Positions 2,409 through 36,004 of a stretch of 64,000 bases of DNA are shown one piece after another. The translations under genes were made by a program, and so were the position numbers. The notes beneath the pieces are model-generated. The model was not told the DNA's origin. It did not search any database and saw only the letters and a program-made list of their open reading frames with translations. The stretch lies in NCBI RefSeq assembly GCF_964204645.1, contig NC_134028.1, positions 15,445,653-15,509,652 on the forward strand, written 5' to 3'. How positions within the stretch are numbered: the stretch's first letter is position 1; the number at the start of each line of letters is the position of its first letter. Origin of the DNA: Tubulanus polymorphus (lineage: Eukaryota > Animalia > Nemertea).

Positions 2409-5400
2409 GAAAGTTTAGAGGCGCAGCGCATGAGAAATGTAACTTACAAGCTAAGAAAATTAATTTTGTACCAGTTATATTTCATAATCTATCAGGATAT
2501 GACGCACATTTATTTATCAAACAGTTATGTTATAAGATAGAAGAAATCAATAATGAAATAGAAAGATTAAATTCAAATAGATCAAAAGCTAAAATACCAA
2601 CTTATAAATTTAGAATGTTAGCTAAAACATCTGAGAATTATATATCATTCCAATTTGGGTGTTTAAGATTTATAGATTCATATAGATTTTTAAACAGTTC
2701 ATTAGATAACTTATCAAAATCATTAGTTGATGATGAATTAAAAATATTAAAACAACACTACCCAAATAATGATGATTTCCAATTAATGAGATATAAAGGA
2801 GCAATTCCATATTCTTTCTATAAAAATCATAATGATTTTAACATAACTGAATTATTAAAAGAACAATTCTATGATGAATTAAAAAATGAATATGTTAAAG
2901 ATGAAGTATATAATAGAACATTGAATATTTGGAATCATTTCAAAATAGAAAATCATGGGCAATTAGTAGATTTATATTTAAAATCAGATGTATTATTATT
3001 AACTGATATATTCGAAAGGTTTAGAGATGTAAACCTAAAATATTTTAACATTGATCCTTGTCATTGTTATTCTAGCCCAGGTTTAACATGGGATTGTGGA
3101 TTAAAATTTACAGATATAAAAATGGATTTGTTAACAAATATAGATCAATTATTATTATTTGAAAAATCTATAAGAGGAGGAGTTTCAGGTGTATTAGGTG
3201 ATAGATATTTCAATGTAAATGATAACCCCGGATATAAGTTATTATATATAGATGCAAATAATTTGTATGGTTGGGCAATGATGGAACCACAACCTTATGG
3301 AGTATTTGAATTAACTGAAGTTTTACAGAATGAAAATAATGATAAATTTGATTGGAAGAAAAGAATCCTAGATATTGCAGATGATTCAGATACTGGTTAC
3401 TTCTTTGTTGTAGATTTAGAATATCCTGAAGATAAAAAATTTAAATCTAGAAATCTAGCTTACTGTCCCGAACATAAAACTGTAACTCATGAAGAATTAT
3501 CAAATTATCAAAAAAGAACTAAACCCGAAAATCATATTCATACAGAAAAGTTAATGGTAACTCAAGAAGATAAATATAATTATGTAGTACATTATAGAAT
3601 GTTAAAGTTTTATTTGAATCAAGGAATGATTCTAAAAAAAGTACATAGATATATTTCATTTAGTCAATCTAAGTGGTTAGAAAAATATATAGATTTTAAC
3701 ACCAAACAGAGAACTGAAGCTAAAACTGATTTCGAGAAAGATTTCTTCAAGTTAATGAAAAATGCATTCTATGGTAAGACTTGTGAAAATATTAGAAATA
3801 GAAATGATATTGAGTTAGTTAGTAATGGCAAAAGGATAAGGCATTTACAATCATATCCTAAGTTTTTAGGTAACAGAATATTTGATGAAAATTTAGCTGC
3901 AGTTAAGATGAGAAGAACATCAATGAAATTTAATAAAACAATCTATGTTGGCGCTTCAGTTTTAGAATTATCAAAATTACTAATGTATGAATTTTATTAT
4001 AACATATTACAACCACTTTTTGGAGAAAAACATATAGAAATACTATATTTTGATTCTGTAACAGCTGACCCCCTAATATTTTTAAAATATAATAATCACA
4101 TGTTAATTAGAAGAATTTCAGAAATAATTCAAAAACAAAATGAATGTTATATTTCGTATGGTGAAAAAGAATTAATACAAATAAATGGATTAATGGATGT
4201 TTGGACAAAAAATGGATTGGTGAAATTAAAGAATATAATTAGACATAAAACGAATAAGAAAATCTATAGAGTTAGAACTAAATTAGGATTTGTTGATGTT
4301 ACTGAAGATCATAGTTTAATTAAACAAAATGGTGATGAAATAAAACCAACTGATATAAAAATTGGAGATGAATTATTACATAAAAGATTTTACCCAAGAA
4401 TGAATCATATGTCATTTGATAAAATAATTGATAATATTTATAATATAGAACCCGAAACATTGGAAGAAAAAGAATATTTTATCAAAGGATTTTTTATGGG
4501 TGATGGTTCAGCAGGTGTGTATAAATATGTTAGTGGAACTAAATATTGTTGGTATTTATGCAATCAAGATTTGAAATTATTAGAAAGAATTAAAAAATAC
4601 TGTGAACAAGTTTATTCACATAAAACATTTAGAATCGGGGATTATATGAAATCATCACAATGTTATAGAATACATGTGAATAATACTAAAGATTTTGCAA
4701 TTAAATATAATGATGAATTCTATATTCATGCAATAGTGAAAAGTAATACTTCAACTAAAGAAAAGATAGTTCCAGATTATGTAATAAATGCAAAAGATAA
4801 TTTAAGAAAATGGTTCTTCATTGGATTTTATACTGCAGATGGTTCAAAAAACTATACAAAACAAAAACTATATCTTTGACACAAAAAGGAAAAGTTGCTG
4901 TATCAGGATTAAATATATTATGCAATTCATTAGGATTTAATATGTTAGTTAATATAAGAAAGGATACACCAAATGTATTTCAATTAACGCATGTAGAAAA
5001 TGTACTAACTGAAGAAGCCAGAGATTTATTTGAAATATCCAATCATACAGAATATGTTTATGATTTAACAACTGAAGATGGTACATTTAATTGTGGATTT
5101 CCATTAATCATAAAAATACAGATTCTTACATATTAAAGATAAAAACTGATAACATAACAGATTATTTAAAAACATTAAAACATCATTTTGATTTTAGTAA
5201 CTATCCTAAAGATCATGAATTGTTTAGCAATGATAATAAAAAAGTTCCAGGGAAGTTTAAGGATGAATTAGGTGGTGAAGAAATGATAGAGTTCATAGGT
5301 ATTAGATCTAAAATGTATTCATATAAAACTAAAGAACATGAAGCTAAAAAGTTAAAAGGAATAACCAAAAGTGTAGTAGAAAAGAATATTCATTTCAAAG

Positions 5401-5648
5401 ATTACATCAATTGTATATTCAAAGAAGAAGTTAGAAAACATAAGATGAGATGTTTAAGATCTGAAGATCATGAAATGTTTATTGAAGAAATTGAAAAGAT
5501 AAGTTTGAATCCATTTGATGATAAAACATATATTCTGGATAATGGAATTCATACAGTTGCTTATGGTTTCAATTTAGATGAATACTTAAAATTTAAAAGA
5601 GAAGAAACAAAAGAGAACGAGATAATGAAAAGAATTCTAACGTGTTAA
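2409..5648 (+). CDS. polB: Protein-primed family B DNA polymerase, 5' truncated, intein-containing, two frameshifts
   Basis: Motifs FHNLSGYDAH, FIDS, YLKSDVLLL, YIDANNLYG, KLMKNAFYGK, YFD|TDS, GKFKDE, RSKMY and KLKGI. Confidence 0.95.
4055..5117 (+). mobile_element. Intein with LAGLIDADG homing endonuclease at the PolB YxD|TDS site
   Basis: Starts SVTADP after YFD. Contains block B VTEDHSL, LAGLIDADG motifs GFFMGDGS and GFYTADGS, and block F YVYDLTTEDGTF. Ends KN followed by TDS. It is 355 codons if single A's are restored near 4866 and 5113. Confidence 0.93.
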
Positions 5649-5677
5649 TCAAATTTTAATGAAAATATGTATAATAA

Positions 5678-6028
5678 ATGGAGAGTAAACAAACACACAG
5701 TGAGAACAACAAATTATTTCTAGATAGAATTAAAAATATAACAAATGTAAAATCTGTAGATTATAAATTCAAAAAATTAACAGAATTAACAATTCATAAG
5801 AAATATCTAATTACAAATATTGATACAGTTACTAATAACTATGGAGATAAATTAGTTATACACTTAAAATAAGGATTAAAAGGAAATACACATAAATTCA
5901 GAACATATTTACCAGATAGATTTCATAGATTATCAAGCGAAGACTTAGAAGAATTATGTTCTGGAGATTTCTATTTCGTATACAAAGGTAAGAATGAAAA
6001 AGGGCACCATGAAATAGATTTCGAATAA
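5678..6028 (+). pseudogene. Small Polinton protein, possible OB-fold ssDNA-binding protein (frameshifted)
   Basis: Paralogous to B 24233-24586; ~117 aa when repaired. Function is inferred from its pattern and its position after PolB. Confidence 0.5.
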
Positions 6029-6045
6029 GAAAATATGTAAAATAA

Positions 6046-6803
6046 ATGGTAGAATTAAAAGAATACAGATTATTTGTTGATTCAAGAAAACTTACAAATT
6101 ATAAATCTCATAATTTACTAGTACAATTAGATAGAGAATTTAAGAATTCTGTAGATTTAAAATTAGTTAATATAAGTTTATGTAATTCTTTTTACAATAT
6201 ATCGGATAAAACTATTGAAGATAATACTGTTTTAATTCATATTAGAAATATGGATAAATGGTATCATCTATTTCTAAGACCAGGATTATATAATTTAGAT
6301 ACATTAGCGCAGGAAATTAATAGAAGAGCTCGGTTGAAAATGGGTGCATCTGCTGGATTTGGATTAAAACTGATTAAAAGTGATAGCTCCGATAAAATAA
6401 GAATAAAATTAGGTAATGAAGATCAACATGCATTTATGGTAAAAAACCTATAGCTAAATTGCTAGGAATTGCACCAGATATTGTTACAGGAAACATAGAT
6501 GGTAATTCAAACTTAATACCTTACACGCACTTTTATATTTATTGCAATTTAATTGATCCTACAAAAACTTTCGAAGCAATTAAAGAAACAATTTGTAGTT
6601 CTAGTATACTAAATATTTTACCACTAAAAAATGTTAAACAATTTGGAACTCAAATAAATTATAATTTAACAGAATGTGATTTTAAACCTTGCATTCCACA
6701 TTTCAATAATTTCAAATTAGAAATAAGAAATCATAATGGTTATTTAATTGATTTGAATAACTTTCCTGTGATATATGAATTAGTTATAAGATGTAGAGAG
6801 TAA
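6046..6803 (+). CDS. Minor capsid protein (penton, single jelly-roll), internal stop at 6451-6453
   Basis: LFVDSR...ISLCNSFYNIS...FYIYCNLID...LEIRNHNGYLIDLNNFPVIYELVI matches the Polinton minor capsid pattern. Confidence 0.75.
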
Positions 6804-6819
6804 TTTTTTCACTATATAA

Positions 6820-7176
6820 ATGAATATAACTGTTGGACCGAGTATATGTTTTGGGTTTGATTTTAAACGTGAGAAAGAAATAAAATTTAACATTACTGAT
6901 GTAATTACACATATCAAAAATATTACATTTTCTAATGAAACAACATTTGAGTATGAAACAACAATAGATAAAGAAACTTTTAATGTAGAAAAGATTACTA
7001 ATTTAATTAGAGAATCTTTAAGATTTTATGAATTAGATGAAGATTTTATCATCGATGATATTAAAAAAATAATAATTGAAATATATACAAATGAAACTAG
7101 TAATGAAATAAATGTTGAATTAATCATCACTAAGATAACTAAATATTTTGAAGATAGTAATTTTTTTGATAAATAA
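6820..7176 (+). CDS. Hypothetical acidic protein (118 aa)
   Basis: Intact ORF with paralogs at 8396-8752 and 25194-25535. Confidence 0.8.
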   Translation: MNITVGPSICFGFDFKREKEIKFNITDVITHIKNITFSNETTFEYETTIDKETFNVEKITNLIRESLRFYELDEDFIIDDIKKIIIEIYTNETSNEINVELIITKITKYFEDSNFFDK

Positions 7177-7398
7177 ATGAGTGATAATAAGTGGATAATA
7201 ACTGGATTATATAATGGCGCATTACTATCAGTTGGAACTGTTGGTTATTCAATGGTATTAAAAAAAGTATTCAAAATGGGAAGTGTTAATGTTGATAGAT
7301 TTGATATAAATGATATCTTAAAATTAACATTAGCAGTTACTCTATCTAATTTAACTATTGATTATTTAGAAAAACAAAAATATATACCTCCCATATAA
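7177..7398 (+). CDS. Small hydrophobic protein (73 aa)
   Basis: Identical protein at 8753-8974 and 25536-25757. Confidence 0.85.
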   Translation: MSDNKWIITGLYNGALLSVGTVGYSMVLKKVFKMGSVNVDRFDINDILKLTLAVTLSNLTIDYLEKQKYIPPI

Positions 7399-7422
7399 AT
7401 GCATAATTATTTTGCTAAATAA

Positions 7423-7845
7423 ATGGCTTCTGCAATTATAACTATTATAGGATCGGCAATTGTTAACGCTTTAGCATTTACTGGTGGTGGATATTTATTT
7501 AAGCATATTGATAAAAATGGTTCATTAACAGAACAAAAAAGACATAACTTAGCATTAGAGAAATACAATAAAGCAGCAGAAGAATACAGAGAAAAACGAC
7601 AAAACTATATGGATTACATCAATAAAGAATTATATGATCAGAAGATTTCACATAGAGATTTTCAATCAGTTGATGATGCAATGAGTTTATATAACGCGGT
7701 AACCAATAAAGAAAAATTACATCTATACAAACCTAAATTATCAGATTATTATACCCCAAGTAAAGAACAACAGAAATATGAAATAATTTGGATTTTAGGT
7801 GGAACTGTTATTGTTATATTTGTAGCATATAAATTTACTAATTAG
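7423..7845 (+). CDS. Membrane-associated protein with EQKRHNLALE motif (140 aa)
   Basis: Hydrophobic N-terminus and C-terminal TM segment. Paralogs at 8999 and 25782. Confidence 0.8.
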   Translation: MASAIITIIGSAIVNALAFTGGGYLFKHIDKNGSLTEQKRHNLALEKYNKAAEEYREKRQNYMDYINKELYDQKISHRDFQSVDDAMSLYNAVTNKEKLHLYKPKLSDYYTPSKEQQKYEIIWILGGTVIVIFVAYKFTN

Positions 7846-7864
7846 TAATTTTTTTTCTAAATAA

Positions 7865-8299
7865 ATGGAAGATAAAGTTGATAATATTGATATTATTCCT
7901 CATGATATAAATAAAACTAAATTAAAAACATATTTAGAAAAACAAATATTAGAATTTGAAAGTGACTTAAAGATAAAAAAGAAAAAATATTTAAAACGTA
8001 AAATTATATATTATTTGATTATAAGTGGTTCGGTTACAATTAGTTCTGTAATTACATTTCTAGCAATATTCAGTCCATTAACACCTTTAGCTATATCAAT
8101 TGGTGTATTAGGATTAAGTTCAAGTGTTTTAACTGGTATAAGTTCAAAATTAAATATAAAAAGTAATAAAGAAAAAATTAAAACTAATATAAAAGAAATT
8201 AATAAATTAAAGAATACACTAGATTATATAATAAGTTTAAATGGCCATATAACAGTTAAAGAACAAGATAAATTATTAAAAGAATTAGTTAATTATTAA
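7865..8299 (+). CDS. Two-TM coiled-coil protein (144 aa)
   Basis: Central hydrophobic hairpin. Paralogs at 9433 and 26225. Confidence 0.8.
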   Translation: MEDKVDNIDIIPHDINKTKLKTYLEKQILEFESDLKIKKKKYLKRKIIYYLIISGSVTISSVITFLAIFSPLTPLAISIGVLGLSSSVLTGISSKLNIKSNKEKIKTNIKEINKLKNTLDYIISLNGHITVKEQDKLLKELVNY

Positions 8300-8395
8300 T
8301 TTTTTTATTATATAAATGGGGTTTCCAAAAGCTTTCCAATATAATAAATCAATAAGATGTTATAAGATGTAGAGAGTAATTTTTTCACTATATAA

Positions 8396-8752
8396 ATGAA
8401 TATAACTGTTGGACCGAGTATATGTTTTGGGTTTGATTTTAAACGTGAGAAAGAAATAAAATTTAACATTACTGATGTAATTACACATATCAAAAATATT
8501 ACATTTTCTAATGAAACAACATTTGAGTATGAAACAACAATAGATAAAGAAACTTTAAATGTAGAAAAGATTACTAATTTAATTAGAGAATCTTTAAGAT
8601 TTTATGAATTAGATGAAGATTTTATCATCGATGATATTAAAAAAATAATAATTGAAATATATACAAATGAAACTAGTAATGAAATAAATGTTGAATTAAT
8701 CATCACTAAGATAACTAAATATTTTGAAGATAGTAATTTTTTTGATAAATAA
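8396..8752 (+). CDS. Duplicate 118-aa protein
   Basis: Near-identical to 6820-7176. Confidence 0.8.
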   Translation: MNITVGPSICFGFDFKREKEIKFNITDVITHIKNITFSNETTFEYETTIDKETLNVEKITNLIRESLRFYELDEDFIIDDIKKIIIEIYTNETSNEINVELIITKITKYFEDSNFFDK

Positions 8753-8974
8753 ATGAGTGATAATAAGTGGATAATAACTGGATTATATAATGGCGCATTA
8801 CTATCAGTTGGAACTGTTGGTTATTCAATGGTATTAAAAAAAGTATTCAAAATGGGAAGTGTTAATGTTGATAGATTTGATATAAATGATATCTTAAAAT
8901 TAACATTAGCAGTTACTTTATCTAATTTAACTATTGATTATTTAGAAAAACAAAAATATATACCTCCCATATAA
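8753..8974 (+). CDS. Duplicate 73-aa hydrophobic protein
   Basis: Identical to 7177-7398. Confidence 0.85.
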   Translation: MSDNKWIITGLYNGALLSVGTVGYSMVLKKVFKMGSVNVDRFDINDILKLTLAVTLSNLTIDYLEKQKYIPPI

Positions 8975-8998
8975 ATGCATAATTTTTTTGCTAAATAA

Positions 8999-9413
8999 AT
9001 GGCTTCTGCACTTATAACTATTATAGGATCGGCAATTGTTAACGCTTTAGCATTTACTGGTGGTGGATATTTATTTAAGCATATTGATAAAAATGGTTCA
9101 TTAACAGAACAAAAAAGACATAACTTAGCATTAGAGAAATACAATAAAGCAGCAGAAGAATACAGAGAAAAACTATATGGATTACATCAATAAAGAATTA
9201 TATGATCAGAAGATTTCACATAGAGATTTTCAATCAGTTGATGATGCAATGAGTTTATATAACGCGGTAACCAATAAAGAAAAATTACATCTATACAAAC
9301 CTAAATTATCAGATTATTATACCCCAATTAAAGAACAACAGAAATATGAAATAATTTGGATTTTAGGTGGAACTGTTATTGTTATATTTGTAGCATATAA
9401 ATTTACTAATTAG
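8999..9413 (+). pseudogene. Duplicate 140-aa protein with an 8-bp deletion
   Basis: gaaaaacgacaaaactat is shortened to gaaaaactat near 9170. Confidence 0.8.
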
Positions 9414-9432
9414 TAATTTTTTTTCTAAATAA

Positions 9433-9867
9433 ATGGAAGATAAAGTTGATAATATTGATATTATTCCTCATGATATAAATAAAACTAAATTAAAAACATA
9501 TTTAGAAAAACAAATATTAGAATTTGAAAGTGACTTAAAGATAAAAAAGAAAAAATATTTAAAAAGTAAAATTATATGTTATTTGATTATAAGTGGTTCG
9601 GTTACAATTAGTTCTGTAATTACATTTCTAGCAATATTCAGTCCATTAACACCTTTAGCTATATCAATTGGTGTATTAGGATTAAGTTCAAGTGTTTTAA
9701 CTGGTATAAGTTCAAAATTGAATATAAAAAGTAATAAAGAAAAAATTAAAACTAATATAAAAGAAATTAATAAATTAAAGAATACACTAGATTATATAAT
9801 AAGTTTAAATGACCATATAACAGTTGAAGAACAAGATAAATTATTAACAGAATTAGTTAATTATTAA
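9433..9867 (+). CDS. Duplicate 144-aa two-TM protein
   Basis: Near-identical to 7865-8299. Confidence 0.8.
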   Translation: MEDKVDNIDIIPHDINKTKLKTYLEKQILEFESDLKIKKKKYLKSKIICYLIISGSVTISSVITFLAIFSPLTPLAISIGVLGLSSSVLTGISSKLNIKSNKEKIKTNIKEINKLKNTLDYIISLNDHITVEEQDKLLTELVNY

Positions 9868-9883
9868 TTTTTTTATTATATAA

Positions 9884-11196
9884 ATGGGGTTTCCAAAAGC
9901 TTTCCAATATAATAAATCAATTAAATATAATATTTCTGCAATAGATTTTAATAAAGATATTACATATAGAAATGAAGTTTTAAATTCATTAATTGATTTA
10001 TATATTTATGTTACTGAAAGTAATAATTTTCATGTAAAGATGGAAAATATATTTCATGTGTATACAATTAATTTCAAAACTTTAAATGAGGCAAAACAAT
10101 GGTTATTAAAATCTAATATGAAGTATTGGCAGAACCAATTAAATTTTGCTGGTTATTGTGCAACAACAGGGTGTGGAATAAGTTGGCATGATCATTTAAA
10201 AAAACCAAGTTTACCATTGATGTTGTCACTTTTTAGATTTCATACTTATTTTCAAATAAAATTAATATTAGATGAATTAGAATGTTCTTTACCAGGTTCA
10301 AAATATTTTAAAGAATTGAATAATAATATTAATTTTTCTAAGTTTTATAAAATATGTAATGAATTTAATATTAATTCAAATGAAGATTTTAGAGCAAAAA
10401 TTGAAACAATGGGTGGATTAGGAATATTATATACTAAAGAATTTGGAAAAATAATGACAAATACAGATTTAGGAACACTAAATTGGAATGAATTACCAAA
10501 ATATTATAATAATATTCAACAACAAAACAATAATGGTTGGGTTAATTTCATTTTAGAAAATAGTGAAGGTTTTACTAAAGCCGGGATACAAAGAATAAAT
10601 CAATCAATTAGAACTTATTTGATATGTATTTTAGGTGTGCAAGTTGAAACAAGATCCCCAATAGTTGGAAATGATAACACTTCATTCGATGCGCAGAAAC
10701 AATTTAAAGGATTATTTGAAGATTCAATTCATAATGATAAAAATAGATCGATTCCAGAAAACATTGTAAGATATCAAAATTATTTAGATAAATCTCATGT
10801 AAGACTAAATTATTGTATAGGCCCTAATCTATTAATTATTTCTAATGATTTAGTATTAAAGATGGGAAATATAATTGGTTACATCTAATTAAAACTGCAA
10901 CAATAAATAGTTCATTTGGATTAAATGATATAAATAAAAAGATTATTACTGCTCCAAAGTTAATGGAAGGTGAACAAAATAAAAAACATATTCAATCAAC
11001 AGAAACTAAAACTAAGAATATTAAATTAAATAATGATTCTAAACCGGATTATAATACATCAGAAAATATTAAAACTGATAATATTCAACATGAAATAATT
11101 AAAACTGATAATGATAATAAATCCCATGAAAATACTAAATTAGCTTTAACTTGTATAGGAATTGTAATCGGAGGAATATTATATTTTAAATTTTAA
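9884..11196 (+). pseudogene. ~440-aa Polinton protein of unknown function with C-terminal TM (frameshifted)
   Basis: The 334 and 77 aa ORFs join by comparison with B 26676-27999. Confidence 0.75.
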
Positions 11197-11211
11197 TTTT
11201 TTATTATATAA

Positions 11212-12665
11212 ATGGATGAAGAAATTCCATTGGATACTTTTGGTGACGCCCCTGGTATAAGTGATGAACCACAACCTGATTTTAATGAAACTAATATTGA
11301 TAATGATGATGAATCAGCATATAATTCTAATTTAGCAGATAGTGGTTCTAAAGCCCCATCAACAGATGAATTTGATAGAAGAACTAGATTGAGAATAAAT
11401 CCTGAAAATGAAAATCAAGGTTTATCAAGACAAAATTTAGAAAATATTGAATTTATGTATGATTTTCAACATGTATTTAAAGATTCAGGATATAATATAA
11501 ATGCCAGAGGCGCCAGACTTTTAGTACAAGAATTAAAATCTTTAGATGGTGAATATTATTATCATTTGAAAGATGATTATTATATTGATATCTCTTATAA
11601 AAAACAAAACAAAATATTAGCAGAATCAACTTTGCTTAAGTCTGACTCATTACTATCTAGAATTAAGAGAATAAGAAATAGTAATGAAATAGAAGATGTA
11701 ACACAAGAAGAAATTATTAAAAATGAAAGAGTATTTAAACAAAGAATTAATGAATTATTTGAAACAATCGATAATAATTTAGAAACAGAAACAACTTCTG
11801 AACAGAATGTAACTTCCAAAACTAGTAAACTTAAATCAAACACTGAAGTTCAAACTGAAACACTTTTACCGAATGGATTACTTGATGCAACAGATCAAGA
11901 AATAGAAGCTTTAAGTATGTTTTCTAAAAAAAATAATTACAGAAATAATAAGTATACGAAATGAAGCCGATAAAATTGCGCGCGAAAAACATATTAGATA
12001 TGATAAAATTAAACCTTTAGAAAATAAATTATTTGACACCAGAAAAGAATTAGAACAATTAAAATTAGATAGAGAATTTAAAGTTATTGAAGAAATTGAA
12101 TCTAAAAAGAGAAATGCATATTTAGAAAAAGAAATTGATGATTTAGAATATAACATAGAATTTCAGAAAGAAAAAATAAAATTATTATTAAAATCATATG
12201 ATTATTGTATTAATAGATTAAAAGTTGTTGTTAAAGAGTTAATACTAAAACCAAATTCTGACATATCACTAAAAGATAGAATAGAATTATTATTTAAGTT
12301 TGAAGGAATAACAATTCTTTCAATTCTAACAGCTGTAACTATGTTATTTACAACAATTGGTTTAGCAATATCAAATGCTTTGAAATCTACTCCTACTCCA
12401 AATAAAACAGATAAACCCCCAGAAAATAATAATTCTATACAAGATAAAGTTAAGGATGGTTTAAAGAAATTAGCAAAATATTTATGGGAACTATCTAAAA
12501 AAATCTGCTGCAGCTTTACGAGGAATTATTGCATCAATTGTTGGTTTTATATTGAAATCTGCTGGGAATATTCTTAACTTTGCTGCTGAACATATTATTT
12601 TATTTTTGATTACAGTTGTAAGTGCAATTATTTTTGGATTAGTAAACATGATTAAAAATAAATAA
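11212..12665 (+). pseudogene. Long acidic/coiled-coil protein with C-terminal hydrophobic helices (frameshifted)
   Basis: Fragments are colinear with B 28016-29387 (LLPNGLLDATDQE; MLFTTIGL...KLAKYLWELSKK). Confidence 0.75.
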
Positions 12666-12686
12666 TTAATTTTTTTTGTTAAATAA

Positions 12687-13926: not shown

Positions 13927-13958
13927 AATTTTAACTATAAGAAAAATTTATATAATAA

Positions 13959-15127: not shown

Positions 15128-15133
15128 ATATAA

Positions 15134-24586: not shown

Positions 24587-24603
24587 GAAAATATGTAAAA
24601 TAA

Positions 24604-25176: not shown

Positions 25177-25193
25177 TTTTTTTCACTATATAA

Positions 25194-25535: not shown

Positions 25536-25757
25536 ATGAGTGATAATAAGTGGATAATAACTGGATTATATAATGGAGCATTACTATCAGTTGGAACTGT
25601 TGGTTATTCAATGGTATTAAAAAAAGTATTCAAAATGGGAAGTGTTAATGTTGATAGATTTGATATAAATGATATTTTAAAATTAACATTAGCAGTTACT
25701 TTATCTAATTTAACTATTGATTATTTGGAAAAACAAAAATATATTCCTCCCATATAA
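25536..25757 (+). CDS. Small hydrophobic protein (73 aa)
   Basis: Identical to copy A at protein level. Confidence 0.85.
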   Translation: MSDNKWIITGLYNGALLSVGTVGYSMVLKKVFKMGSVNVDRFDINDILKLTLAVTLSNLTIDYLEKQKYIPPI

Positions 25758-25781
25758 ATACGTAATTATTTTGCTAAATAA

Positions 25782-26204
25782 ATGGCTTCTGCAGTTATAA
25801 CTATTATAGGATCAGCAATTGTTAACGCTTTAGCATTTACTGGTGGCGGTTATTTATTTAAGCATATTGATAAAAATGGTTCATTAACAGAACAAAAAAG
25901 ACATAACTTAGCATTAGAGAAATACAATAAAGCAGCGGAAGAATACAGAGAAAAACGACAAAACTATATGGATTATATTAACAAGGAATTATATGATCAG
26001 AAGATTTCACATAGAGATTTTCAATCAGTTGATGATGCAATGAGTTTATATAACGCGGTAACCAATAAAGAAAAATTACATCTATACAAACCTACAATAT
26101 CAGATTATTATACCCCAAGTAATGAACAGAAGAAATATGAAATAATATGGATTTAAGGTGAAACAGTTATTGTTATATTTGTTGCTTATAAGTTTACTAA
26201 TTAG
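25782..26204 (+). pseudogene. 140-aa membrane-associated protein, premature stop at 26154-26156
   Basis: Paralog of 7423-7845. Confidence 0.75.
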
Positions 26205-26224
26205 TAATTTTTTTTGCTAAATAA

Positions 26225-26659
26225 ATGGAAGATAAAGTTGATAATATTGATATTATTCCTCATGATATAAATAAAACTAAATTAAAAACATATTTAGAAA
26301 AACAAATATTAGAATTTGAAAATGATTTAAAAGTTAAAAAGAAAAAATATTTAAAAAGTAAAGTTATATATTATTTGATTATAAGTGGTTCGGTTACAAT
26401 TAGTTCTGTAATAACATTTCTAGCAATATTCAGTCCATTAACACCTTTAGCTATATCAATTGGTGTGTTAGGATTAAGTTCAAGTGTTTTAACTGGTATA
26501 AGTTCAAAATTAAATATAAAAAGTAATAAAGAAAAAATTAAAACTAATATAAATGAAATTAATAAATTAAAAATTACGCTAGATTATATAATAAGTTTAG
26601 ATGGTCATATAACAGTTGAAGAACAAGATAAATTATTAAAAGAATTAATAAATTATTAA
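26225..26659 (+). CDS. Two-TM coiled-coil protein (144 aa)
   Basis: Paralog of 7865-8299. Confidence 0.8.
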   Translation: MEDKVDNIDIIPHDINKTKLKTYLEKQILEFENDLKVKKKKYLKSKVIYYLIISGSVTISSVITFLAIFSPLTPLAISIGVLGLSSSVLTGISSKLNIKSNKEKIKTNINEINKLKITLDYIISLDGHITVEEQDKLLKELINY

Positions 26660-26675
26660 TTTTTTAATTATATAA

Positions 26676-27999
26676 ATGGCAGATAGTTTTCCAAAAGCTT
26701 TCCAATATAATAAATCAATTAAATATAATATTCCAGCAATAGATTTTAATGAAGATATTACATATAGAAATGAAGTTTTAAATCCATTAATTGATTTATA
26801 TATTTATGTTACTGAAAGTAATAATTTTCATGTAAAGATGGAAAATATATTTCATGTGTATACAATTAATTTCAAAAATTTAAATGAGGCAAAACAATGG
26901 TTATTAAAATCTAATATGAAGTATTGGCAGAACCAATTAAATTTTGCTGTTTATTGCGCAACAACAGGATGTGGAATTAGTTGGAATGATCATTTAAACA
27001 AACCAAGTTTACCATTGATGTTATCACTTTTTAGATTTCATACATATTTTCAAATAAAATTAATATTAGATGAATTAGAATGTCCTTTACCAGGTTCAAA
27101 ATATTTTAAAGAATTGAATAATAATATTAATTTTTCTAAGTTTTATAAAATATGTAATGAATTTAATATTAATTCAAATAAAGATTTTAGAGCAAAAATT
27201 GGAACAATGGGTGGATTAGGAATATTATATACTAAAGAATTTGGAAAAATAATGACAAATTCAGATATAAGAACACTAAATTGGAATGAATTACCAAAAT
27301 ATTATAATAATATACAACAACAAAACCATAATGGTTGGGTTAATTTCATTTTAGAAAATAGTGAAGGTTTTACTAAAGCTGGAATACAAAGAATAAATCA
27401 ATCTATTAGAACTTATTTGATATGTATTTTAGGTGCGCAAGTTGAAACAAGATCCCCAATAATTGGAAATGATAACACTTCATTCGATGCGCAGAAACAG
27501 TTTAAAGTATTATTTGAAGATTCAATTCATAATGATAAAAATAGATCGATTCCAGAAAACATTGTAAGATATCAAAATTATTTAGATAAATCACATATTA
27601 GATTAAATTATTGTATAGGCCCTAATCTATTTATTATTTCTAATGATTTAGTATTAAAGATGGGAAACATAATTGGTTATAATAATCTAATTAAAACTGC
27701 AACAATAAACAATTCATTTGGATTAAATGATATAAATAAAAAGATTATTACTGCTCCAAAATTAATGGAAGGTGAAAAAAATAAAAAACATTCAATCAAC
27801 AGAAACTAAAACTAAGAATATTAAATTAAATAATGATTCTAAAATAAAAGATTACAATACATCAGAAGATATAAAAACTGATATTATTCAACATGATATA
27901 ATTAAACTAAATGATGATAATAAATCCCATAAAAATGCTAAATTAGCTTTAACTTGTATAGGAATTGTTTTAGGAGGAATATTATATTTTAAATTTTAA
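26676..27999 (+). CDS. ~440-aa protein of unknown function with C-terminal TM (one frameshift)
   Basis: 377 and 75 aa ORFs; paralog of 9884-11196. Confidence 0.78.
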
Positions 28000-28015
28000 T
28001 TTTTTTATTATATAT

Positions 28016-29387
28016 ATGGATGTAGAAGGTGTAGAAGATTTTCCATTGGTTCCTTCAGATGAACCTGGTATAAGTGATGAACAACCGCCCGATTTTAGTG
28101 AAACAAGTATTAATGACGGTAATGAGCCAGGACGTAATTCTAATTTAACTACACCTGAATATATTGATAAAACACGTTCAAAGATAAGTATTGAAAATGA
28201 AGTACCAGAATTAACAGAAAAAGAATACAAATATAATGAAATTGATCGTGATTTTAAACCAATGTTAAAAAGATCTGGTTTCAATATAACAAATAAAGGT
28301 ATGGATTATTGAGTAGAAGATTTGAAATATTTAAATGGCGATTATTATTGGAAATTGAAAGGCAACTATTATTTTAATATTTTAAATCTTTAAAGTAACG
28401 ATAAAATAATAGCACAATCAACTTTTAATTTATTAAAATCAGATAGAATTAAGAAAATCATTAATGATGTTATAACTGATGTTACAGAAAAAGAGATAAT
28501 TGATAATAGAAGAGCATTTAAACGAAGAAATGATTATTTTTTGAAGATAATTAAAGAAAATTTAGAACCAGAAACAATTACTAAAGAAGTTATTAATTCC
28601 AAAACAAGTAAACCTAAATCAAGAAGAGTTCAAACTGAAAAACTTTTACCAAATGGATTACTTGATGCAACAGATCAAGAATTAGAAGATTTAAATAATA
28701 TATTTTCTGTTGATGTAATTAGAGAAATTGAAAGTATAAGACTTGCATCTGATAAAATTGCGCATGATAAAAGTATAAGAGATATTGAAATTAGAAATTT
28801 AGAAAAAGAATTAACTGATGAAATGGAATATAGGAAAAAAGAATTCCGTTTAGAAAAAGAAATTGATAATTTAAAAGATAATTTAGAAGTACTGAAAGGT
28901 GAAAGAGATATTATTGAAAGAATTTGGTAATAATTTTAAAAGATTAAAAGATGTTTTTAAAGATTTGTTGATAAAACCAGATTCTAAAATATCATTGAAA
29001 GATAGAATAAGATTATTATTTAAATTATAAGGAATAACAATTCTTTCAATTCAAACAGCTGTAACTATGTTATTTACAACAATTGGTTTAACTATATCAA
29101 ATTCACTGAAATCTACTCCTACTCCCAATAAACCGGATAAACCCCCGAATGATAATTCTATACAAGATAAAGTTAAGGATGGTTTAAAGAAATTAGCAAA
29201 ATATTTATGGGAACTATCTAAAAAATCTGCTGCAGCATTACCAGGAGTTATTGCATCAATTGTTGGTTTTATATTGAAATTTGCAGGAAACATTTTTAAC
29301 TTTGCTGCTGAACATATAATTTTATTTTTAATTACAGTGGTAAGTGCAATTATTTTTGGGTTAGTTAATATGATAAAAAATAAATAA
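28016..29387 (+). pseudogene. Acidic/coiled-coil protein with C-terminal hydrophobic helices
   Basis: Three fragments colinear with A 11212-12665. Confidence 0.75.
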
Positions 29388-29407
29388 TTAATTTTTTTGT
29401 TAAATAA

Positions 29408-30653
29408 ATGAGTGGGAGTTATATCAATCCTTCTAAGAATCATAGAATATCTAATGCTATTAAAGCAGAAAGATCACATCATATAATTACTCATAACCCT
29501 TCTAATATTAATCCCGATGAAACTTTATATGTTAGAATCCCTCGATTAACACAAAATACTTTTTATGTTCCAAATAGTATTCATTTATCAGCCGATATAA
29601 AAGTAATCGGTAATAATAATAATTATGTTGTTGATAATGTTGGAAGATATTTGATTAAAAAATTAACAATAAAGATTGGTCCAGGAACAGTTTTCTCATT
29701 AGATGATTATAATTTATTTATGCATTATAAAGATTTATGGTTAACTAAAGAAAATAGAAATAATATGATATTAAGGCATCCAATCAGAAGACCAAAATAA
29801 ATTAAGATCAGAAGCGCATAATGCAATATTAACTAATGCTATAGATAAATTGATAAAAAGTATATATGGAAGCAAATATAAAATTCCATTAGACTTTGAA
29901 TTGATAAATAATAATGCGCCTTTATATAAATACGCAATTCAAGAAGACGTTATATTCGAAATAACATTTGCTCCTGTTAATGAAATTGTAATATCTAGCG
30001 TTAATAAAGATATGAGTTATAAATTATCGAATATATGTTTAGAATATGATACAGTAACTGATGAAAATATTTCAAGTATAATTCAAACTAAATACAATCA
30101 AGGATTTTCATTATTATATGTTTATATTGATAAATTTAAAACTGTAACTATTAATGCAAATGATGAAATTATTAATGAGAATATTAACTTCCCAAGAAGA
30201 TCTATTAAAGGTATATTAATATTTTTTACCATTGCAACATATACTAATGGCGCAATAAATGTTGATAATTATTATAATCCTGAAATAACAAAAGTAGAAA
30301 TAACTATCGAAGGAATAGCAAATAAAATATTTTGTCAAGGAATGAGAATGATAGATCAGTGGCCAGAAATTAGAAAACATTTTATGAATGAAAAAGTAAA
30401 ATCATCTGAAAATTGTAATATTAATCAAATTGATTATTATACCGGTAATAAATATGCATTATGTTTAGATTTTAGAACAACAGAGGATAATTCATTACAT
30501 GGTTCTGGAAAAAAATTACAGAACACTAAAGTTGGAATACAATTATTCATGACAAAGAATAAAGGAATCAAAAATTTTAAAATGCATATTTATATTATAT
30601 CTGACGCGCAATTAAATATTGTAAATTCTCAATTGAATAGTGTTATGTATTAG
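29408..30653 (+). CDS. Major capsid protein (one frameshift near 29772)
   Basis: Paralog of 12687-13926. Confidence 0.8.
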
Positions 30654-30685
30654 AATTTTAACTTTAATAAAAATTTATATAATAA

Positions 30686-31564
30686 ATGGAAGGAGGTAAA
30701 GTATATAAACATATTCCATACATCGATACACATGAAAATAATGATGGTTTATATTATGTAATACCTTGTAATATAGCTTTGATATTTGATCCTATTTTCA
30801 AAATTTATAAAACTAAACTAATAGAAATCAATAATAATAAAAGTGGTGTTGTTGATAATTTAAGTAATGTAATTGATAATAATGTAATACCTTCTACATC
30901 TAATAATGTAATACCTACTACAGCTAATAATGTAATACCTTCTACATCTAATAATTTAATACCTTCTACATCTAATAATGTAATACCTTCTACATCTAAT
31001 AATGAAATAATATTAAATTTTAGTGAAAATAGAAATTATTGTGGATATTGTTAAGGTGAATTTTCAAACGCTCCATCAAATTGGAATAAACATATGAATA
31101 CAAAGGTACATATTACTAATGTTATAAAACGTGTTGGTTTAAATGAATTTATAGAACACCCATTTAGATATGTTACAAAGTTTGTTTCAAATCAAAAGGT
31201 AAATGGTGAAAAAATATATGAAGATTTATTATTAGCAACACCTAATAAAGATGAATTAGATCTAACCGATGCTAATGAAATATTAAAACCAAACACTGTA
31301 AATGAAATATTAGGAGCAAACACTAATAAAGATAATAATGAAGATATAGTTACAGATAAGCATATTGATATTAAAGATTCTATGAAACATAAAGTAGAAA
31401 ATAATGATAAATTTGATTGGATGAATAAGCATAACAATGAAACAACTATTGATGATGCGGTAAAAAGGATGAAGAATAAGTATAAAAATAATAAAGAATT
31501 TGAAGAAGAAAATTCGGTAGAGAATTTAAATAAATTGTTAGGGTCTGATAGTGAAAGTAATTAA
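30686..31564 (+). pseudogene. Variable-slot protein with (NNVIPSTS)n repeats and one Zn finger; internal stop
   Basis: 24-bp repeat x5 at ~30878-31000; YCGYC*GEF..WNKHMNTKVH. Homologous to C 60108-60877 and not to copy A. Confidence 0.7.
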
Positions 31565-31998
31565 AATATTGATTATATTTAACACAAATAATAATATTGG
31601 TTGAAAATTGTATAAAATAATAGTAAATAAAAAAGGGGGTTTTAAGTATTCAAGGTATTTAAGGTATCTAATACATATCTAATACAATCTAATACAATCT
31701 AATACAATCTAATACATAAAATATCTTATTTTATAAACTGATATTCATATGGAAATTGAAACCTCAGTAATAATAAATAACCTTTATTATTTTCAAACTT
31801 ATTCATATATTAGTTGAAAAAATAAAAATAAATTGGTTGAAAATTGTATAAATAATATTTATTTTAAAAAGGGGGTTTTAAGTATTTAAGGTATCTAAGG
31901 TATTGGGGTATCTAATAGGGTATCAGGTATTAGGGTACCTAATAGGGGGTATCAGGTATTAGGGTATTAGGGTATCTAATACATAGGTATACAAATAG

Positions 31999-32602
31999 TT
32001 ATTTTATAAATTTATATTCATAGGGAAATTGTAGTCTCAGTAATAATTTTGAACCTTTATTATTCTTTAATTTATTCATATATTCATCATGTAATTCAGT
32101 AGTATATTTGATTTTCTTCCAATGATTGTTGCATAGATTTTTTATCTTTATTGTAGAATAAAACTAGAAATCTTATATTCTCCCTAAAGTCTTTAGAAAT
32201 TGAATTATATTTTTGATTTAAAACCCATGTTGTTATCCCAAAATGTCTTCCAGAGAAAGCTAAGTAACATAACTCACTTTCTCTCACTTTTGAATCATGT
32301 AAATTTGCGCAATCATCTATAATGAATAATGTATTTGAACCTTTATAAATATCAATTGCTATTTTTATACAATTATCTAAATTTTCTGTTTTAGGATCTA
32401 ATATAATAAACTTTTTCATCTTAACTATATCTCTATTATATGTTTTATTCATTTCATAAGTAGGACAGAATAATATTATATTATCAAAATGATTCTTATA
32501 AATAGTTTCTAACAAATCTAATATGAAATGTGTTTTACCACAGTTTGTTACGCCAGTAACTAACATATTATGCGGTTCAAATATAAATAAATCTTTATTC
32601 AT
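31999..32602 (-). CDS. A32-like packaging ATPase (3' frameshift)
   Basis: GVTNCGKT, IIDDC and SGRH. Confidence 0.9.
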
Positions 32603-33714
32603 TTATTCTTTTAATTTTACTAGATAAAATCCGTTCATTAAATTTATCATCGTATCCTTTAGATTTCACCAAAGAATACTTTTTTCCTTTAAGAGTTTTT
32701 GTTTTCAATACTTTTTCTATTTTGTATTCTATTTCATCTGGATTTGGTACAAATGATAATTCTTGTTCATAGAAATAACCTAATATTTCTTCATCCTTTA
32801 GATCTTCTAGTTTATAAACAAAAGGTTTAGGAAATATTATCTTTTTAATCTTGAATATTTCTTCTGTAAAATTTGGGGTATAACCTTTATAAAAGGTTTT
32901 TCGATATTTAGATATTCTTACGTGTTGTCCTATTTTAAATTTAGGTTCACCGAAATCATGTGTAGCAAATGCGCCACATAAATTATTCCAAACTATTTCT
33001 GAATTATCTTCTTTTCTAGCTTGTATAGGTTTCATATTTATAGAACTATGTTTAGAATTATTATAACCTTTCACTAAATCATCTAACACATCGATATATT
33101 TATATGTTTCATTAGCAGTAAAATATTTCCACATTCTAGTTTTCAATGTTTTATTAAATCTTTCTATAATAGATGCTTTTTTTATCTGAGTGTGTTGAAA
33201 AATAATCTACATCGTTATCAGATAATAGTTTTTTAAAATGTTTGTTATAAAATTCCTTACCTTCATCAAATTGTATCTTATCTGGAATAGCTTCTTTAAA
33301 TATTGATTTAAAAGCATTTGTCACTTCTATACCAGTCTTATTTTTGATTTGAATTGACCATGCGTATCTACTGAATATGTCTATAACATTCAGTATCCAG
33401 AAATATCCTTTGTTGTATTCCTCTAAGTTCTTCATGTCAATTAAATCTGCTTGCCATTGTTGATCGATATATGAAACCATAACTTTTCTTGTTAAATAAG
33501 TTTTATCCATTTTCTTGTGTATTTGATATGTTGATTGATTTTGTAACCATAATCTTAGTTCACCATATTTTATATCACCGTGTGGGTGCCATACGGCACC
33601 ATTACCATTTTCATTATCAGATTTAATTTTATTCCATAATTCTGAAACGTTAGAATATGATACTTCACTTTCTGGGTTATAATATAAATCTCTTAAATAT
33701 TGTTCTTTTTTCAT
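32595..33714 (-). CDS. Integrase-chromodomain (frameshift in an A-run near 33180)
   Basis: The 186 and 183 aa ORFs together carry the DDE motifs and chromodomain. Confidence 0.92.
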
Positions 33715-33720
33715 CTTATT

Positions 33721-34089
33721 TTAATCCATTAATAATAATTTAGATTTAGTTTCAATGGTTTTATGATTTGACTTATTTTCTGGTATGATAGGTTTATTGT
33801 CATTGGAATCATCTTTATCATCAGATTTGAATTTTGATTTATATATTACACCGGATAATATAATAACTGTTACTAATCCAATTGTGATATATAATTTATA
33901 ATTACTTCCAGCATTAGAAGCATTTGATGGATTATTATTTGAATCAATATCAGATAAAGTCTGTGATTCATTTATATCAGTTAATTTCTGTTTCTTAGCT
34001 TTTTTTAATTCTGAAGATCTTTTACCTAATTCTCTTGCCCATTTAATTTGTTTCTCGGATCTAGCCTTTTTCTTAACTCCATCACTCAT
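33721..34089 (-). CDS. Basic N-terminus, single-TM protein (122 aa)
   Basis: RSEKQIKWARELG; TM LYITIGLVTVIILSGVIY. Conserved in copy C. Confidence 0.8.
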   Translation of the reverse strand: MSDGVKKKARSEKQIKWARELGKRSSELKKAKKQKLTDINESQTLSDIDSNNNPSNASNAGSNYKLYITIGLVTVIILSGVIYKSKFKSDDKDDSNDNKPIIPENKSNHKTIETKSKLLLMD

Positions 34090-34690
34090 TTATTTTAGTT
34101 AATTTTTGTTCTGATTCATTTTCTGTTTCGACGTTTGGTTGTAGTACATCTGTTTCGTTCTTACCTGATTTATATTCCATAGGTTTGATGTTCGAAAATG
34201 TTATGACGCCAGTAGAAATTAATGTCATAACCGATCCTAATTGAAATGAAGCATATCCAACCCATTTTTGTAATTCAGTCATAACTAAGTAGTCATTTTT
34301 CAAATCACTATATAATTTATTTTCATCATCAATTGGTACATCAACTGGTTACATAATTTTGAATAACATTTGATAATACCATAACTTATAGAGTCGTTTA
34401 TTCGGGCTAATCTTGCCTCTTCATGAATCTTAAAATATTTTATTACTTTATCGGGTTTCATAGCATCTACTTGAAAAGTAATAGTCTTAGTTAAAAATTG
34501 TTTAAACTTTCCGCTAGCAATCAATAGTTCAATATGGTGTTTACAATATAAGTAGTATTCATAATATATATTGTTATTAACTTGAATATTATTTTCAATT
34601 TTGGTTTTTAATATCCTTATTATCACTAATACCTAAATCATCTAATGTTTTTTCAATATCAATACTATTCTTACTCGATTTCTTTGACAT
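34082..34690 (-). pseudogene. ~200-aa protein, frameshifted
   Basis: Fragments are colinear with copies A and C. Confidence 0.7.
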
Positions 34691-34941
34691 TTATATTAGA
34701 GAAATTTAATAAAAAAAATATTATAAGTATTATAAAATGATACCAGTATCTCTTTAGATTAATACTAGCTTAGTTAAAGGTAAATAATTTTAGTATTAGT
34801 TATTGTTTTTTTAGTATTTTTTATTTGTGATATAAAGTATTCTTTTTTGAAAAGAAAATATTAAAAAACAAATAAATAACTAATACTAGCTAGTTGAAGA
34901 TATGTAATTTTTAATACTTTTTATTTAAAATCTATTATTCT

Positions 34942-35609
34942 TTAACCACTCATTAAAGATTCAACGTATTGTTCATTATTTGGATTATTGTTCCATTGAT
35001 CAATAAATTTCTTTGCCTTTGTTAACTGTTCTAAATATAACTGTAAATCTAGTTCATTAGATTTAATTATATTTTCCTTCTTTTCTAAAGGTCTTAAATT
35101 CTTCCAATTCCAAATAAGTTTTTATTGTATTCATCATTCATGTTAAATTTAGAAATCGGCAACACGTGATCAATATGAAAGTATTCACCATAATTATCTA
35201 TATTCATTTTATCATCGAATTGATATATTATCCATGATTTGAGAAATTCATCTGTACAACCTAATAAATTAGATAGTGTTTCTGAATGTGTTTCTTTGTT
35301 GAATAATTGTGTTAATCTAGATCTTAAACATTGTTTCAATCTAAAATTAAGATCTGTTTGATATCTTTCTCTCATATATTCTGCCATATAATAATTATAA
35401 TGTTCTATATTATCTTCTCGGTATTGTTTGGTATATAGTTTAAAACAAGTTTTACAGCAATATTGAAAACCATCTTTGCTAATCTTACGCTTATTAAATT
35501 CTGTTATAGCTAATTTATCTATTTCACATTTAGAACACTTCTTGTAGTATATATTTATGACACCAGTGTTATTTGTAATGTTTATAGTTTGTGGTTGTTC
35601 TGGTTCCAT
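34942..35609 (-). CDS. Zn-ribbon plus HNH endonuclease (frameshift near 35120)
   Basis: Paralog of 18760-19431. Confidence 0.78.
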
Positions 35610-35630
35610 TTATTATACATAATTTTTTAC

Positions 35631-36004
35631 TAAATTGATTTTAGAAGTTCAATGATTTATATCATGTATTATTTCAATCACACTTTACTAACACTTTTAA
35701 TGTTTAAAAATCTAACTCATACAAATATGAATATTGAAATAATGTTGTAAATATATTCTTTCATATTGAATAATCTGTCAATTTAAATGTTATTCATTTA
35801 CATGAATATTTTAAGAGTAATAGGGATAATAGGCTTTCAGGTTAAAGGTTGAAGGGGCGAGTGAGTAAAAAATGAAAATAACAATAATTTACAGTTGAAT
35901 TAGGAGTGTGCGCGACTAATTCAACTGTAAATTATTGTTATTTTCATTTTTTTACGCGCTCGACCCTTCGACCTTTGATCTGAAAGCCCATTACCCCTAT
36001 TACT
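35631..36004. repeat. Right TIR of copy B ending in a 189-bp hairpin (35816-36004)
   Basis: agtaatagggataataggctttcag ... ctgaaagcccattacccctattact. Confidence 0.92.

Follow-up and report, generated by a model that had tools for sequence, protein, structure and literature searches.

In the present study we describe a family of Polinton elements from the nemertean Tubulanus polymorphus, residing in a stretch of 64,000 nucleotides of contig NC_134028.1 (positions 15,445,653 to 15,509,652 of the forward strand; this whole stretch is called the window and is numbered from its first letter). Comparison of the window with itself resolved the interval 2409-36004 into two tandem, decayed copies (A and B) of one family with a Beta-type polymerase. 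Nearly all genes of these copies begin at TAAATG, and this promoter layout is the strongest of three unusual traits that were verified, the other two being terminal hairpins and an intein in the DNA polymerase. Judging from the sequence, we put at about even the chances that the family lives as a satellite in the manner of virophages, its genes being transcribed by the RNA polymerase that a co-infecting virus of poxvirus type would bring along and not by host RNA polymerase II (Pol II).

Gene starts and their upstream sequences

TAAATG was found at 12 of 15 gene starts in copy A and at 13 of 15 in copy B, and 14 of the 15 genes have it in at least one copy, with the integrase as the only exception; the start of the DNA polymerase gene (PolB) is intact in neither copy and was excluded from this count. 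An earlier, preliminary description of this DNA, which reported TAAATG at nearly all starts, is thus borne out. The background amounts to 5.6-8.3% of all ATGs of the element and to 16 of 718 in host DNA. The combined pattern TTTTT-N5-9-TAAATG gave 56 overlapping matches, with 3.7 expected from shuffles of the whole window, which is a lenient control, the host part being less AT-rich. The sequence TTTTTNT was seen 6 times in 12 open reading frames (ORFs), with about 9.6 expected, a comparison that gave no usable information.

Starts from the window and from related loci of its clade were divided post hoc into two classes. Capsid and membrane genes, among which two genes without known function were placed, have T at position -10 in 25/27 starts and a T-run in 21/27; for internal TAAATG sequences serving as controls the values were 25/70 and 2/70, respectively. 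The other genes have an A-run in 14/21 starts and a T-run in 3/21. Late promoters of vaccinia follow the consensus TAAAT(G), preceded by a stretch of Ts of which one occupies the 10th base upstream, and its intermediate promoters are rich in A (PMC11980589; PMC5294985). The T-run/TAAATG layout appears to match this published consensus, and the promoters point to a polymerase of poxvirus type rather than of mimivirus or iridovirus type. The proposal of the preliminary description that the element may use the transcription machinery of a large DNA virus gains real support from this layout and from its restriction to certain lineages.

The distribution of the motif was followed in the best 80 of 106 metagenome loci with capsid genes, 44 of which had enough of the capsid for a tree. 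Of the starts supported by homology, 34 of 41 carry TAAATG in the capsid clade of the window (support 99, 14 loci) and 1 of 82 in its 16-locus sister clade, the ten starts checked in two loci of the latter reading AAAATG. Two further capsid sublineages have the motif at 10/10 and 4/6 starts, and nine other loci at 0/30. AT-richness was rejected as the cause, since the motif follows capsid lineage and not GC content: it is present at 44% GC (L009) and 40% GC (L010) and absent at 26% (L039) and 28% (L043). Stop-start coupling was rejected as well, TAA being the upstream stop in one of nine measurable junctions, and so was trans-splicing, as AG precedes ATG at the integrase start only. Genes starting at TAAATG were also seen in other polinton lineages, namely in L002 (where an adenain-like domain is fused to the integrase), L051, L062, L072 and L049, so the trait is wider than the clade of the window.

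The same starts may be read in another way. Many of them also include AATAAA or TATAAA, which are signals of host Pol II, and the element could be an autonomous nuclear Polinton transcribed by this enzyme. In such a case T-run/TAWATAAATG would be a compact cassette of host type, in which a poly(A) signal or pause serving the gene upstream is combined with an element like TATA or an initiator, the likeness to poxviruses would be convergence, and the intein and the HNH endonuclease described below would be passengers. Polintons are transcribed in coral tissue (PMC11131425), no helper gene was detected by Pfam in the element or in clade loci, and the roughly 180 copies reported below imply repeated germ-line integration, all of which would suit host transcription. 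However, the constant part across relatives is TAAATG and not AATAAA, AATAAA is not clearly depleted within genes, and sister lineages with the same genes manage without the block. Moreover, with a TATA box abutting ATG, Pol II would begin transcription within the coding region, and scanning ribosomes find a poor context where T occupies -3. The latter difficulty would vanish if slippage at TAAAT provided mRNA with a poly(A) head, and poly(A) heads arising by slippage at a TAAA-type initiator have been described (PMC6211774). We consider transcription by Pol II unlikely.

Copies of the element

The preliminary description treated 2409-36004 as one element, which does not hold, as the two copies are separated by a 416-bp host spacer. 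A third fragment lies further along the window:

2409-20035, Polinton copy A, truncated at the left inside PolB, right terminus intact, frameshift-decayed
20446-20451, plus strand, target-site duplication GAGCGG left of copy B
20452-36004, Polinton copy B, a complete 15,553-bp insertion with AGT...ACT ends and inverted repeats of about 450 bp, decayed
36005-36010, plus strand, target-site duplication GAGCGG right of copy B
55815-61532, copy C, an inverted fragment without ends found by self-comparison, comprising the region from U138 to the ATPase and part of the capsid gene

Copy A contains a 1.58-kb internal duplication (6783-9932). At 63945-64000, on the window edge, an open frame begins with a T-run/TAAATG start and may belong to a fourth family fragment, and a short isolated match (about 80%) to the non-coding region 18629-18747 of the element lies at 38060-38187.

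The element has 23.5% GC against 37.6% in the flank, and no introns are apparent in its ORFs. The intronless and very AT-rich genes of the preliminary description are therefore real, while its intron-rich host rests on a single spliced-looking gene, judged by eye. This is an Ulp1-family protease gene (1524-2300, Pfam match) with short GT-AG introns and single-copy depth, which lies immediately to the left of copy A.

Reads came from a DNA run bearing the same species label, of which about 12% was sampled, and were placed at 85% likeness. Depth jumps at 2409 from about 4 to about 600, and its mean over PolB is 646, compared with 3.6 over four flank bins; the resulting ratio, roughly 180-fold, is a rough one owing to low flank counts. 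About 180 polymerase copies per single-copy flank imply repeated integration in the germ line. Reads at least 99% like copy A numbered 298 of 16,342 placed.

The small share of such reads and the decay of every copy in the window would be expected of a relic, that is, of a family descending from a pox-type satellite, which kept its promoters and captured genes but whose spread, whether present or past, no longer involves a helper, or which has died out in this host. The captures of intein and HNH, with 30-45% identity to outside relatives, are old, which agrees with it. Yet in elements whose capsids are 52-80% identical each start class still goes with the same genes, and hairpin arms co-vary between copies A and B, each of which argues for selection until recently. 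We hold the relic explanation for rather improbable.

Terminal hairpins

The following terminal structures were recognized:

19693-20035, right terminal hairpin of copy A, 343 nt, whose loop encloses an additional nested palindrome (z -27.2)
20452-20639, left terminal imperfect hairpin of copy B, 188 nt (-74.3 kcal/mol, z -22.6), with AAAAAATGAAAA in each arm
35816-36004, right terminal imperfect hairpin of copy B, 189 nt (z -19.5)

Self-complementary ends had been noted in the preliminary description, and indeed all three genomic ends, on which the account of end structure is based, fold from the first base with z of about -20 to -27. Between the right end of A and the left end of B there are 7 substitutions and an insertion of 9 bases, which are mirrored in both arms, and a few unmirrored changes; such co-varying arms fit a fold-back structure under selection. 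Mismatches are mostly C/T, so that the 3' strands are more stable via G-T pairs (-81 vs -74, -76 vs -68 and -138 vs -133 kcal/mol).

The motif AAAAAATGAAAA occurs 8 times, always in hairpin arms, and is absent from the other 31.7 kb (0.43 expected), the eight occurrences being copies of one palindromic site and hence about one observation. It resembles the poxvirus early core, which has been described as 'A-rich interrupted by TG' (PMC11980589). No match to the terminal motif was found in viral contigs. The extra palindrome in the loop of the A hairpin (19795-19925) itself contains the motif AAAAATGAAAAATA, and such nesting suggests that hairpins can grow by fold-back copying.

None of the clade loci reached an element end. 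Seven other contig ends were folded, and none gave a comparable hairpin except the repeat-based end of L027, where positions 1-206 form a palindrome built from tandem repeats, its loop containing (TTAGGG)n. An EndoVII domain, present in the polymerase of copy B, occurs also in L040, whose sampled end has no such hairpin.

Intein of the DNA polymerase

The third unusual trait lies in the polymerase gene of copy A:

about 4055-5117, plus strand, intein with LAGLIDADG endonuclease at polymerase motif C (YFD/SVT...KN/TDS; two LAGLIDADG motifs)

Its presence at the conserved polymerase site, as claimed in the preliminary description, was verified: the sequence starts with Ser, ends with Asn and is followed by Thr at +1, in agreement with the definition of an intein. 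It is 62% identical to the intact intein of the protein-primed PolB (pPolB) P0001 and is broken in frame near 4865 and 5115. In copy B a deletion of about 1.8 kb at 23656/23681 spans the intein region, and the sequence resumes at D-T-D-S, which looks like an empty allele. Reads with empty-site joints were found as well, 4052->5116 in 90 reads and 4058->5126 in 73, the former joint also in contigs of two other runs. Depth over the first half of the intein is 0.36 of that over PolB, although divergent intein reads may be undercounted. The intein is thereby confirmed as polymorphic, about a third of family copies carrying it. Motif C is empty in 8/8 related loci in which it was recovered.

Within the best 120 of 216 matches to the intein, the top five are protein-primed polymerases (62, 46, 45, 47 and 45% identity) and nearly all others are RNA-primed PolB, with a few topoisomerases. 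A quick tree comprised 70 rows (the 69 of 120 matches that have both ends and the unbroken N-part of the window intein), and a careful one 32 of these rows, picked from the neighbourhood. The careful tree unites five polinton inteins in one clade (100/99) and gives no resolution of its sister, for which the quick tree suggests (93) a group with P0019 (L087, a polymerase from a giant-virus metagenome-assembled genome, MAG) and P0014 (a T4/RB69-like polymerase, for which no locus was found). Identities of extein and intein to those of the window are 59/62, 47/46, 46/45 and 42/46% among Beta polymerases; in P0005, an Alpha-like polinton polymerase, the intein is 45% identical and the extein gave no BLAST match. 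To the same intein family belong P0005, P0014 of a T4-like phage, P0062 (Chloropicon Pol delta) and the type II topoisomerases P0090, P0091, P0094 and P0108. Identity to outside relatives, in a range shared with the HNH endonuclease, is 30-45%.

Our reading is that the intein represents one old capture followed by long co-descent, with at least one jump between polymerase classes, and homing among Polinton copies is probable. Extein and intein identities move together and the inteins form a single clade, so there is no sign of recent trade with a helper. The trade supposed in the preliminary description is not shown by these data, and the nearest relatives outside Polintons are giant-virus MAG and T4-like polymerases and not those of a poxvirus. 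The intein is no evidence for a present-day helper. As for precedents, PMC11071308, in the parts available, only suggests that endonuclease insertions in pPolB may stem from intein invasions, and a review abstract (PMC5874633) gives bacteria, archaea and unicellular eukaryotes as the range of inteins.

HNH endonuclease

A second captured gene is situated near the right end of both copies:

18760-19431 (copy B: 35094-35609), minus strand, free-standing zinc-finger/HNH endonuclease, whose start sits in the inverted repeat

Eighteen relatives of this gene were found. Two of the three matches in viral contigs interrupt giant-virus capsid genes, at 30-37% identity (the interruption is backed by Pfam Capsid_N in L085 and was judged by eye in L084), and the closest Atlas clusters are viral, mostly phage where a phylum is recorded. 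The proposal of the preliminary description that the HNH is of a large-DNA-virus type is thus supported by relatives inside giant-virus capsid genes and weakened by the phage character of the nearest clusters. Five polinton HNHs form one clade (97) in a quick tree of 26 rows, one of them (P0283) being counted as polinton from shared end sequences, with its contig unseen. Among the 80 capsid loci HNH matches occur in 5 only, all of the lineage of the window. So the gene belongs to a family common to large DNA viruses generally and was gained once.

The preliminary description named two findings that together would refute the proposed helper, expression as capped Pol II transcripts in virus-free tissue and a grouping of intein and HNH with other Polintons only. 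The second half agrees with the clades of both trees, although giant-virus sequences are among the outside relatives of each. So intein and HNH each appear to go back to one ancient capture, drawn from a gene pool common to giant viruses, phages and protists.

Gene content

The remaining genes and spacers of the element are as follows:

2409-5648, plus strand, pPolB of Beta type in copy A, N-terminal part absent (PF03175, E 3.8e-15; aligned to P0001)
20855-24203, plus strand, PolB of copy B in pieces, with zinc fingers, terminal-protein-like, OTU-like, EndoVII, exonuclease and polymerase parts (PF03175, PF02945)
5678-6028 (copy B: 24233-24586), plus strand, U1, a small conserved ORF with A-run start
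6046-6803 (copy B: 24604-25176), plus strand, penton (minor capsid) gene with A-run start; the predicted model of relative L004 matches the mavirus penton (E 7e-10)
6820-8299, plus strand, U2 and three small hydrophobic ORFs (73, 140 and 144 aa) with T-run starts; tandem duplicate at 8359-9932
9884-12665 (copy B: 26676-29387), plus strand, two large conserved genes with C-terminal membrane segments and T-run starts
12687-13926 (copy B: 29408-30653), plus strand, major capsid protein, double jelly-roll, T-run start
13959-15127 (copy B: 30686-31564), plus strand, variable zinc-finger gene 3' of the capsid gene, A-run start
15137-15745, degenerate central palindromic region between converging gene blocks (self-match 68%)
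15799-16412 (copy B: 32096-32602), minus strand, A32-like packaging ATPase (PF04665, E 2e-12)
16403-17546 (copy B: 32595-33714), minus strand, retroviral-type integrase with chromodomain (PF00665, E 6.5e-10; PF00385)
17553-18513 (copy B: 33721-34690), minus strand, 122-aa membrane protein and U138 gene

PF03175 was detected in the PolB of both copies, with 59% identity to the intact P0001; the terminal-protein-like and OTU-like labels in copy B follow PMC11071308. The capsid model of relative P0122 (model confidence, pLDDT, 88.6) matches iridovirus and PBCV-1 capsids with E of about 1e-16, and these rank above mavirus. No relatives of the capsid were found in the viral contigs or prokaryote assemblies searched; capsid proteins of the P0131 cluster, 54% identical to that of the window, are filed under Bartonella assemblies (NCBI/UniRef), probably due to eukaryotic contamination. 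The post-capsid gene of copy B contains a 24-bp tandem repeat (30853-31033). A degenerate palindromic or repetitive spacer is present also in copy B (31586-32084), with like self-matches in L004 (9082-9359) and L007 (3183-3255); it lies between converging gene blocks and may be a termination region. In L004 a deoxynucleoside kinase (10343-10981, minus strand) stands behind a T-run/TAAATG start, and the sole viral-contig relative found (L091) is 37% identical.

About seven membrane proteins had been counted in the preliminary description. Five are clear by hydropathy, one more is a likely false positive in the ATPase, and two candidates fall below threshold. Its remark that no obvious maturation protease is present agrees with our searches, which found none in the element by Pfam or tblastn. 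Three candidate protease queries (L001-L003, one confirmed by Pfam) had no tblastn match in the window and a single marginal one (E 0.004) in the 80 capsid loci, at the start of the L006 integrase, and no protease is present among 12 ORFs of L040, which is a complete element. We also discounted the Ulp1 protease at 1524-2300, since it lies outside the element and at single-copy depth. By its gene content the element is not an adenain-bearing adintovirus in the narrow sense. Inspection by eye showed counterparts of the membrane proteins in loci without TAAATG, and adintoviruses have been described as carrying membrane-active genes (PMC8502044, section 3.2). Since both are common to relatives without TAAATG, membrane proteins and the absent protease are not diagnostic.

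No RNA polymerase family was found among the window ORFs by Pfam. U2 has no usable Atlas family, and several other ORFs are likewise without one, which leaves room for an own, unrecognised transcription factor or small polymerase among U1, U2, U138 and the zinc-finger gene that would read TAAATG. Yeast linear elements with pPolB do use TAAAN with their own polymerase (PMC6211774), and a weak VLTF3-like match (E 6e-4) was seen in relative L028. But L028 lacks the motif (0/7 starts), no ORF is big enough for a multisubunit polymerase, and several of the ORFs without family have counterparts in motif-free lineages (by eye), so we regard this explanation as very improbable.

As regards the flanks, a 3' end of a retrotransposon integrase piece with DUF5641 (Pfam) lies at 1-222 and is presumably Pao/BEL-like. 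A broken THAP/P-element transposase occupies 36459-43500, with a 200-bp inverted duplication (36554-36754 and 38996-39189), and a P2RX7_C domain is also present. Such flanking pieces point to an invertebrate animal.

Comparison with known systems

Features expected of a Polinton are present: pPolB, rve integrase, terminal inverted repeats with a target duplication (GAGCGG; 5-8 bp expected), double jelly-roll capsid, penton and A32 ATPase. Within Maverick/Polinton (Polintoviricetes), the element shares with Beta-polymerase adintoviruses (PMC8502044; 10.64898/2026.06.19.733378) these genes, inverted repeats, a 6-bp target duplication, membrane-active accessory proteins and an animal host. It differs in lacking the adenain-type protease, which is true of the whole capsid type including the complete L040; Adenain/Ulp1 protease is typical of Polinton group 1, group 2 being described as variable. 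It differs also in pox-style starts, long terminal hairpins and a Hint-type intein in pPolB, none of which is mentioned in the parts of PMC8502044 and 10.64898/2026.06.19.733378 available.

Polinton-like viruses (PLVs) associated with entomopoxviruses (PMC11296320) are likewise small capsid-coding elements and proposed poxvirus hyperparasites in animals. They have a tyrosine recombinase, a primase-helicase end module and highly divergent capsids and were found with the helper, promoters not being discussed in the accessible text, whereas our element has pPolB and rve, germ-line integration and promoter evidence and is known without helper.

Virophages (mavirus, Zamilon; PMC11464507, PMC8547959) have no polymerase of their own and keep genes under late motifs of the helper, the likeness here being the lack of an RNA polymerase family in window ORFs; mavirus integrates and reactivates upon superinfection. 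Unlike the element, they live in protists, depend on helpers and motifs of the mimivirus family, and have a capsid family of their own together with a conserved protease. With a capsid model nearer to iridovirus and PBCV-1 than to mavirus and no protease found, the element falls outside Virophaviricetes.

The cytoplasmic linear elements pGKL1/2 of yeast have no capsid and are not known to carry an integrase. They share protein-primed linear DNA, the TAAAN initiator and a pox-early-like upstream element, but supply an RNA polymerase, a helicase and a capping enzyme from genes of their own (PMC6211774). Motif-C (YGD/TDS) inteins of giant-virus PolB, Chloropicon Pol delta and the T4-like polymerase have the same site, Ser start, Asn end and LAGLIDADG core at about 40% identity; that of the window differs in that the polymerase is protein-primed and belongs to an endogenous element of an animal, and in falling into a polinton-only clade spanning Beta and Alpha-like polymerases. 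As regards the poxvirus telomere, a covalently closed end with flip and flop forms, mismatched hairpins are present in the integrated copies, and all three ends are in one orientation.

Discussion

If the family is indeed a satellite of a poxvirus-type virus, post-replicative factors of the helper would recognise the T-run or A-run with TAAAT, initiate within AAA and add a poly(A) head at the 5' end. Copying of the linear genome would fall to the protein-primed polymerase that the element itself encodes, the 3' strands would fold back on terminal hairpins, possibly with self-priming, and the EndoVII domain of the polymerase may cut the resulting junctions. The capsid encoded by the element would enclose the genomes, and new copies would integrate in the germ line. 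Life beside large DNA viruses may have let the ancestors capture the HNH, the intein and, in L004, deoxynucleoside kinase. Homing into motif-C sites that are still empty would today carry the intein chiefly from one Polinton copy to another. There are precedents: virophage genes use late motifs of the helper (PMC11464507), polinton-like viruses occur in entomopoxvirus occlusion bodies (PMC11296320), and in the pPolB-bearing linear elements of yeast a TAAAN initiator goes together with poly(A) heads (PMC6211774).

Several observations weigh against this explanation. Neither sequence from a helper nor a transcript start nor free linear DNA was seen, and Pfam gave no poxvirus genes in the element or clade loci. 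Outside the polinton clades, the nearest relatives of the intein and the HNH are giant-virus MAG, T4-like phage and unlabelled proteins, and not those of poxviruses. The mismatch block keeps the same orientation at 3/3 ends, with no pox-like flip/flop. All three copies are broken by frameshifts or stops. TAAATG is missing from the integrase gene of copies A, B and C and of L007, many starts hold the Pol II signals discussed above, the two start classes were drawn after the fact from rows that are related and not independent, and TAAATG in two other capsid sublineages means that the motif arose or was lost more than once. Finally, coral polintoviruses are expressed in host transcriptomes, with a helper unmentioned in the accessible part of that study (PMC11131425).

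More tentatively, and with some doubt, it may be proposed that a Polinton lineage in invertebrate germ lines consists of integrating virophages of poxvirus-type viruses, with early-, intermediate- and late-like promoter classes, mismatched hairpin ends tuned to the pox factory and an actively homing intein in an animal nuclear genome. Neither pox promoters, nor terminal hairpins, nor a Hint intein in a Polinton are described in the parts covered (main texts in part, apart from supplements, the genome maps of PMC8502044, Repbase and subscription papers) of PMC11071308, PMC12220804, 10.64898/2026.10.13.758929, PMC5294985, PMC11980589, PMC3671162, PMC11131425, PMC11464507, PMC6211774, 10.1101/2023.08.22.554363, PMC10710043, PMC11296320, PMC8502044 and 10.64898/2026.06.19.733378.

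No virions of animal Polintons have been observed (10.64898/2026.06.19.733378), and the clade-specific pox promoter layout names the kind of trigger to look for in the expression of their genes. It is in itself unusual that an endogenous element of an animal should contain a Hint-type intein, and a polymorphic one. Should the proposed dependence on a poxvirus-type helper be true, the virophage lifestyle would extend from protists to animal germ lines, and this lineage would be a candidate for heritable defence against poxviruses in animals.

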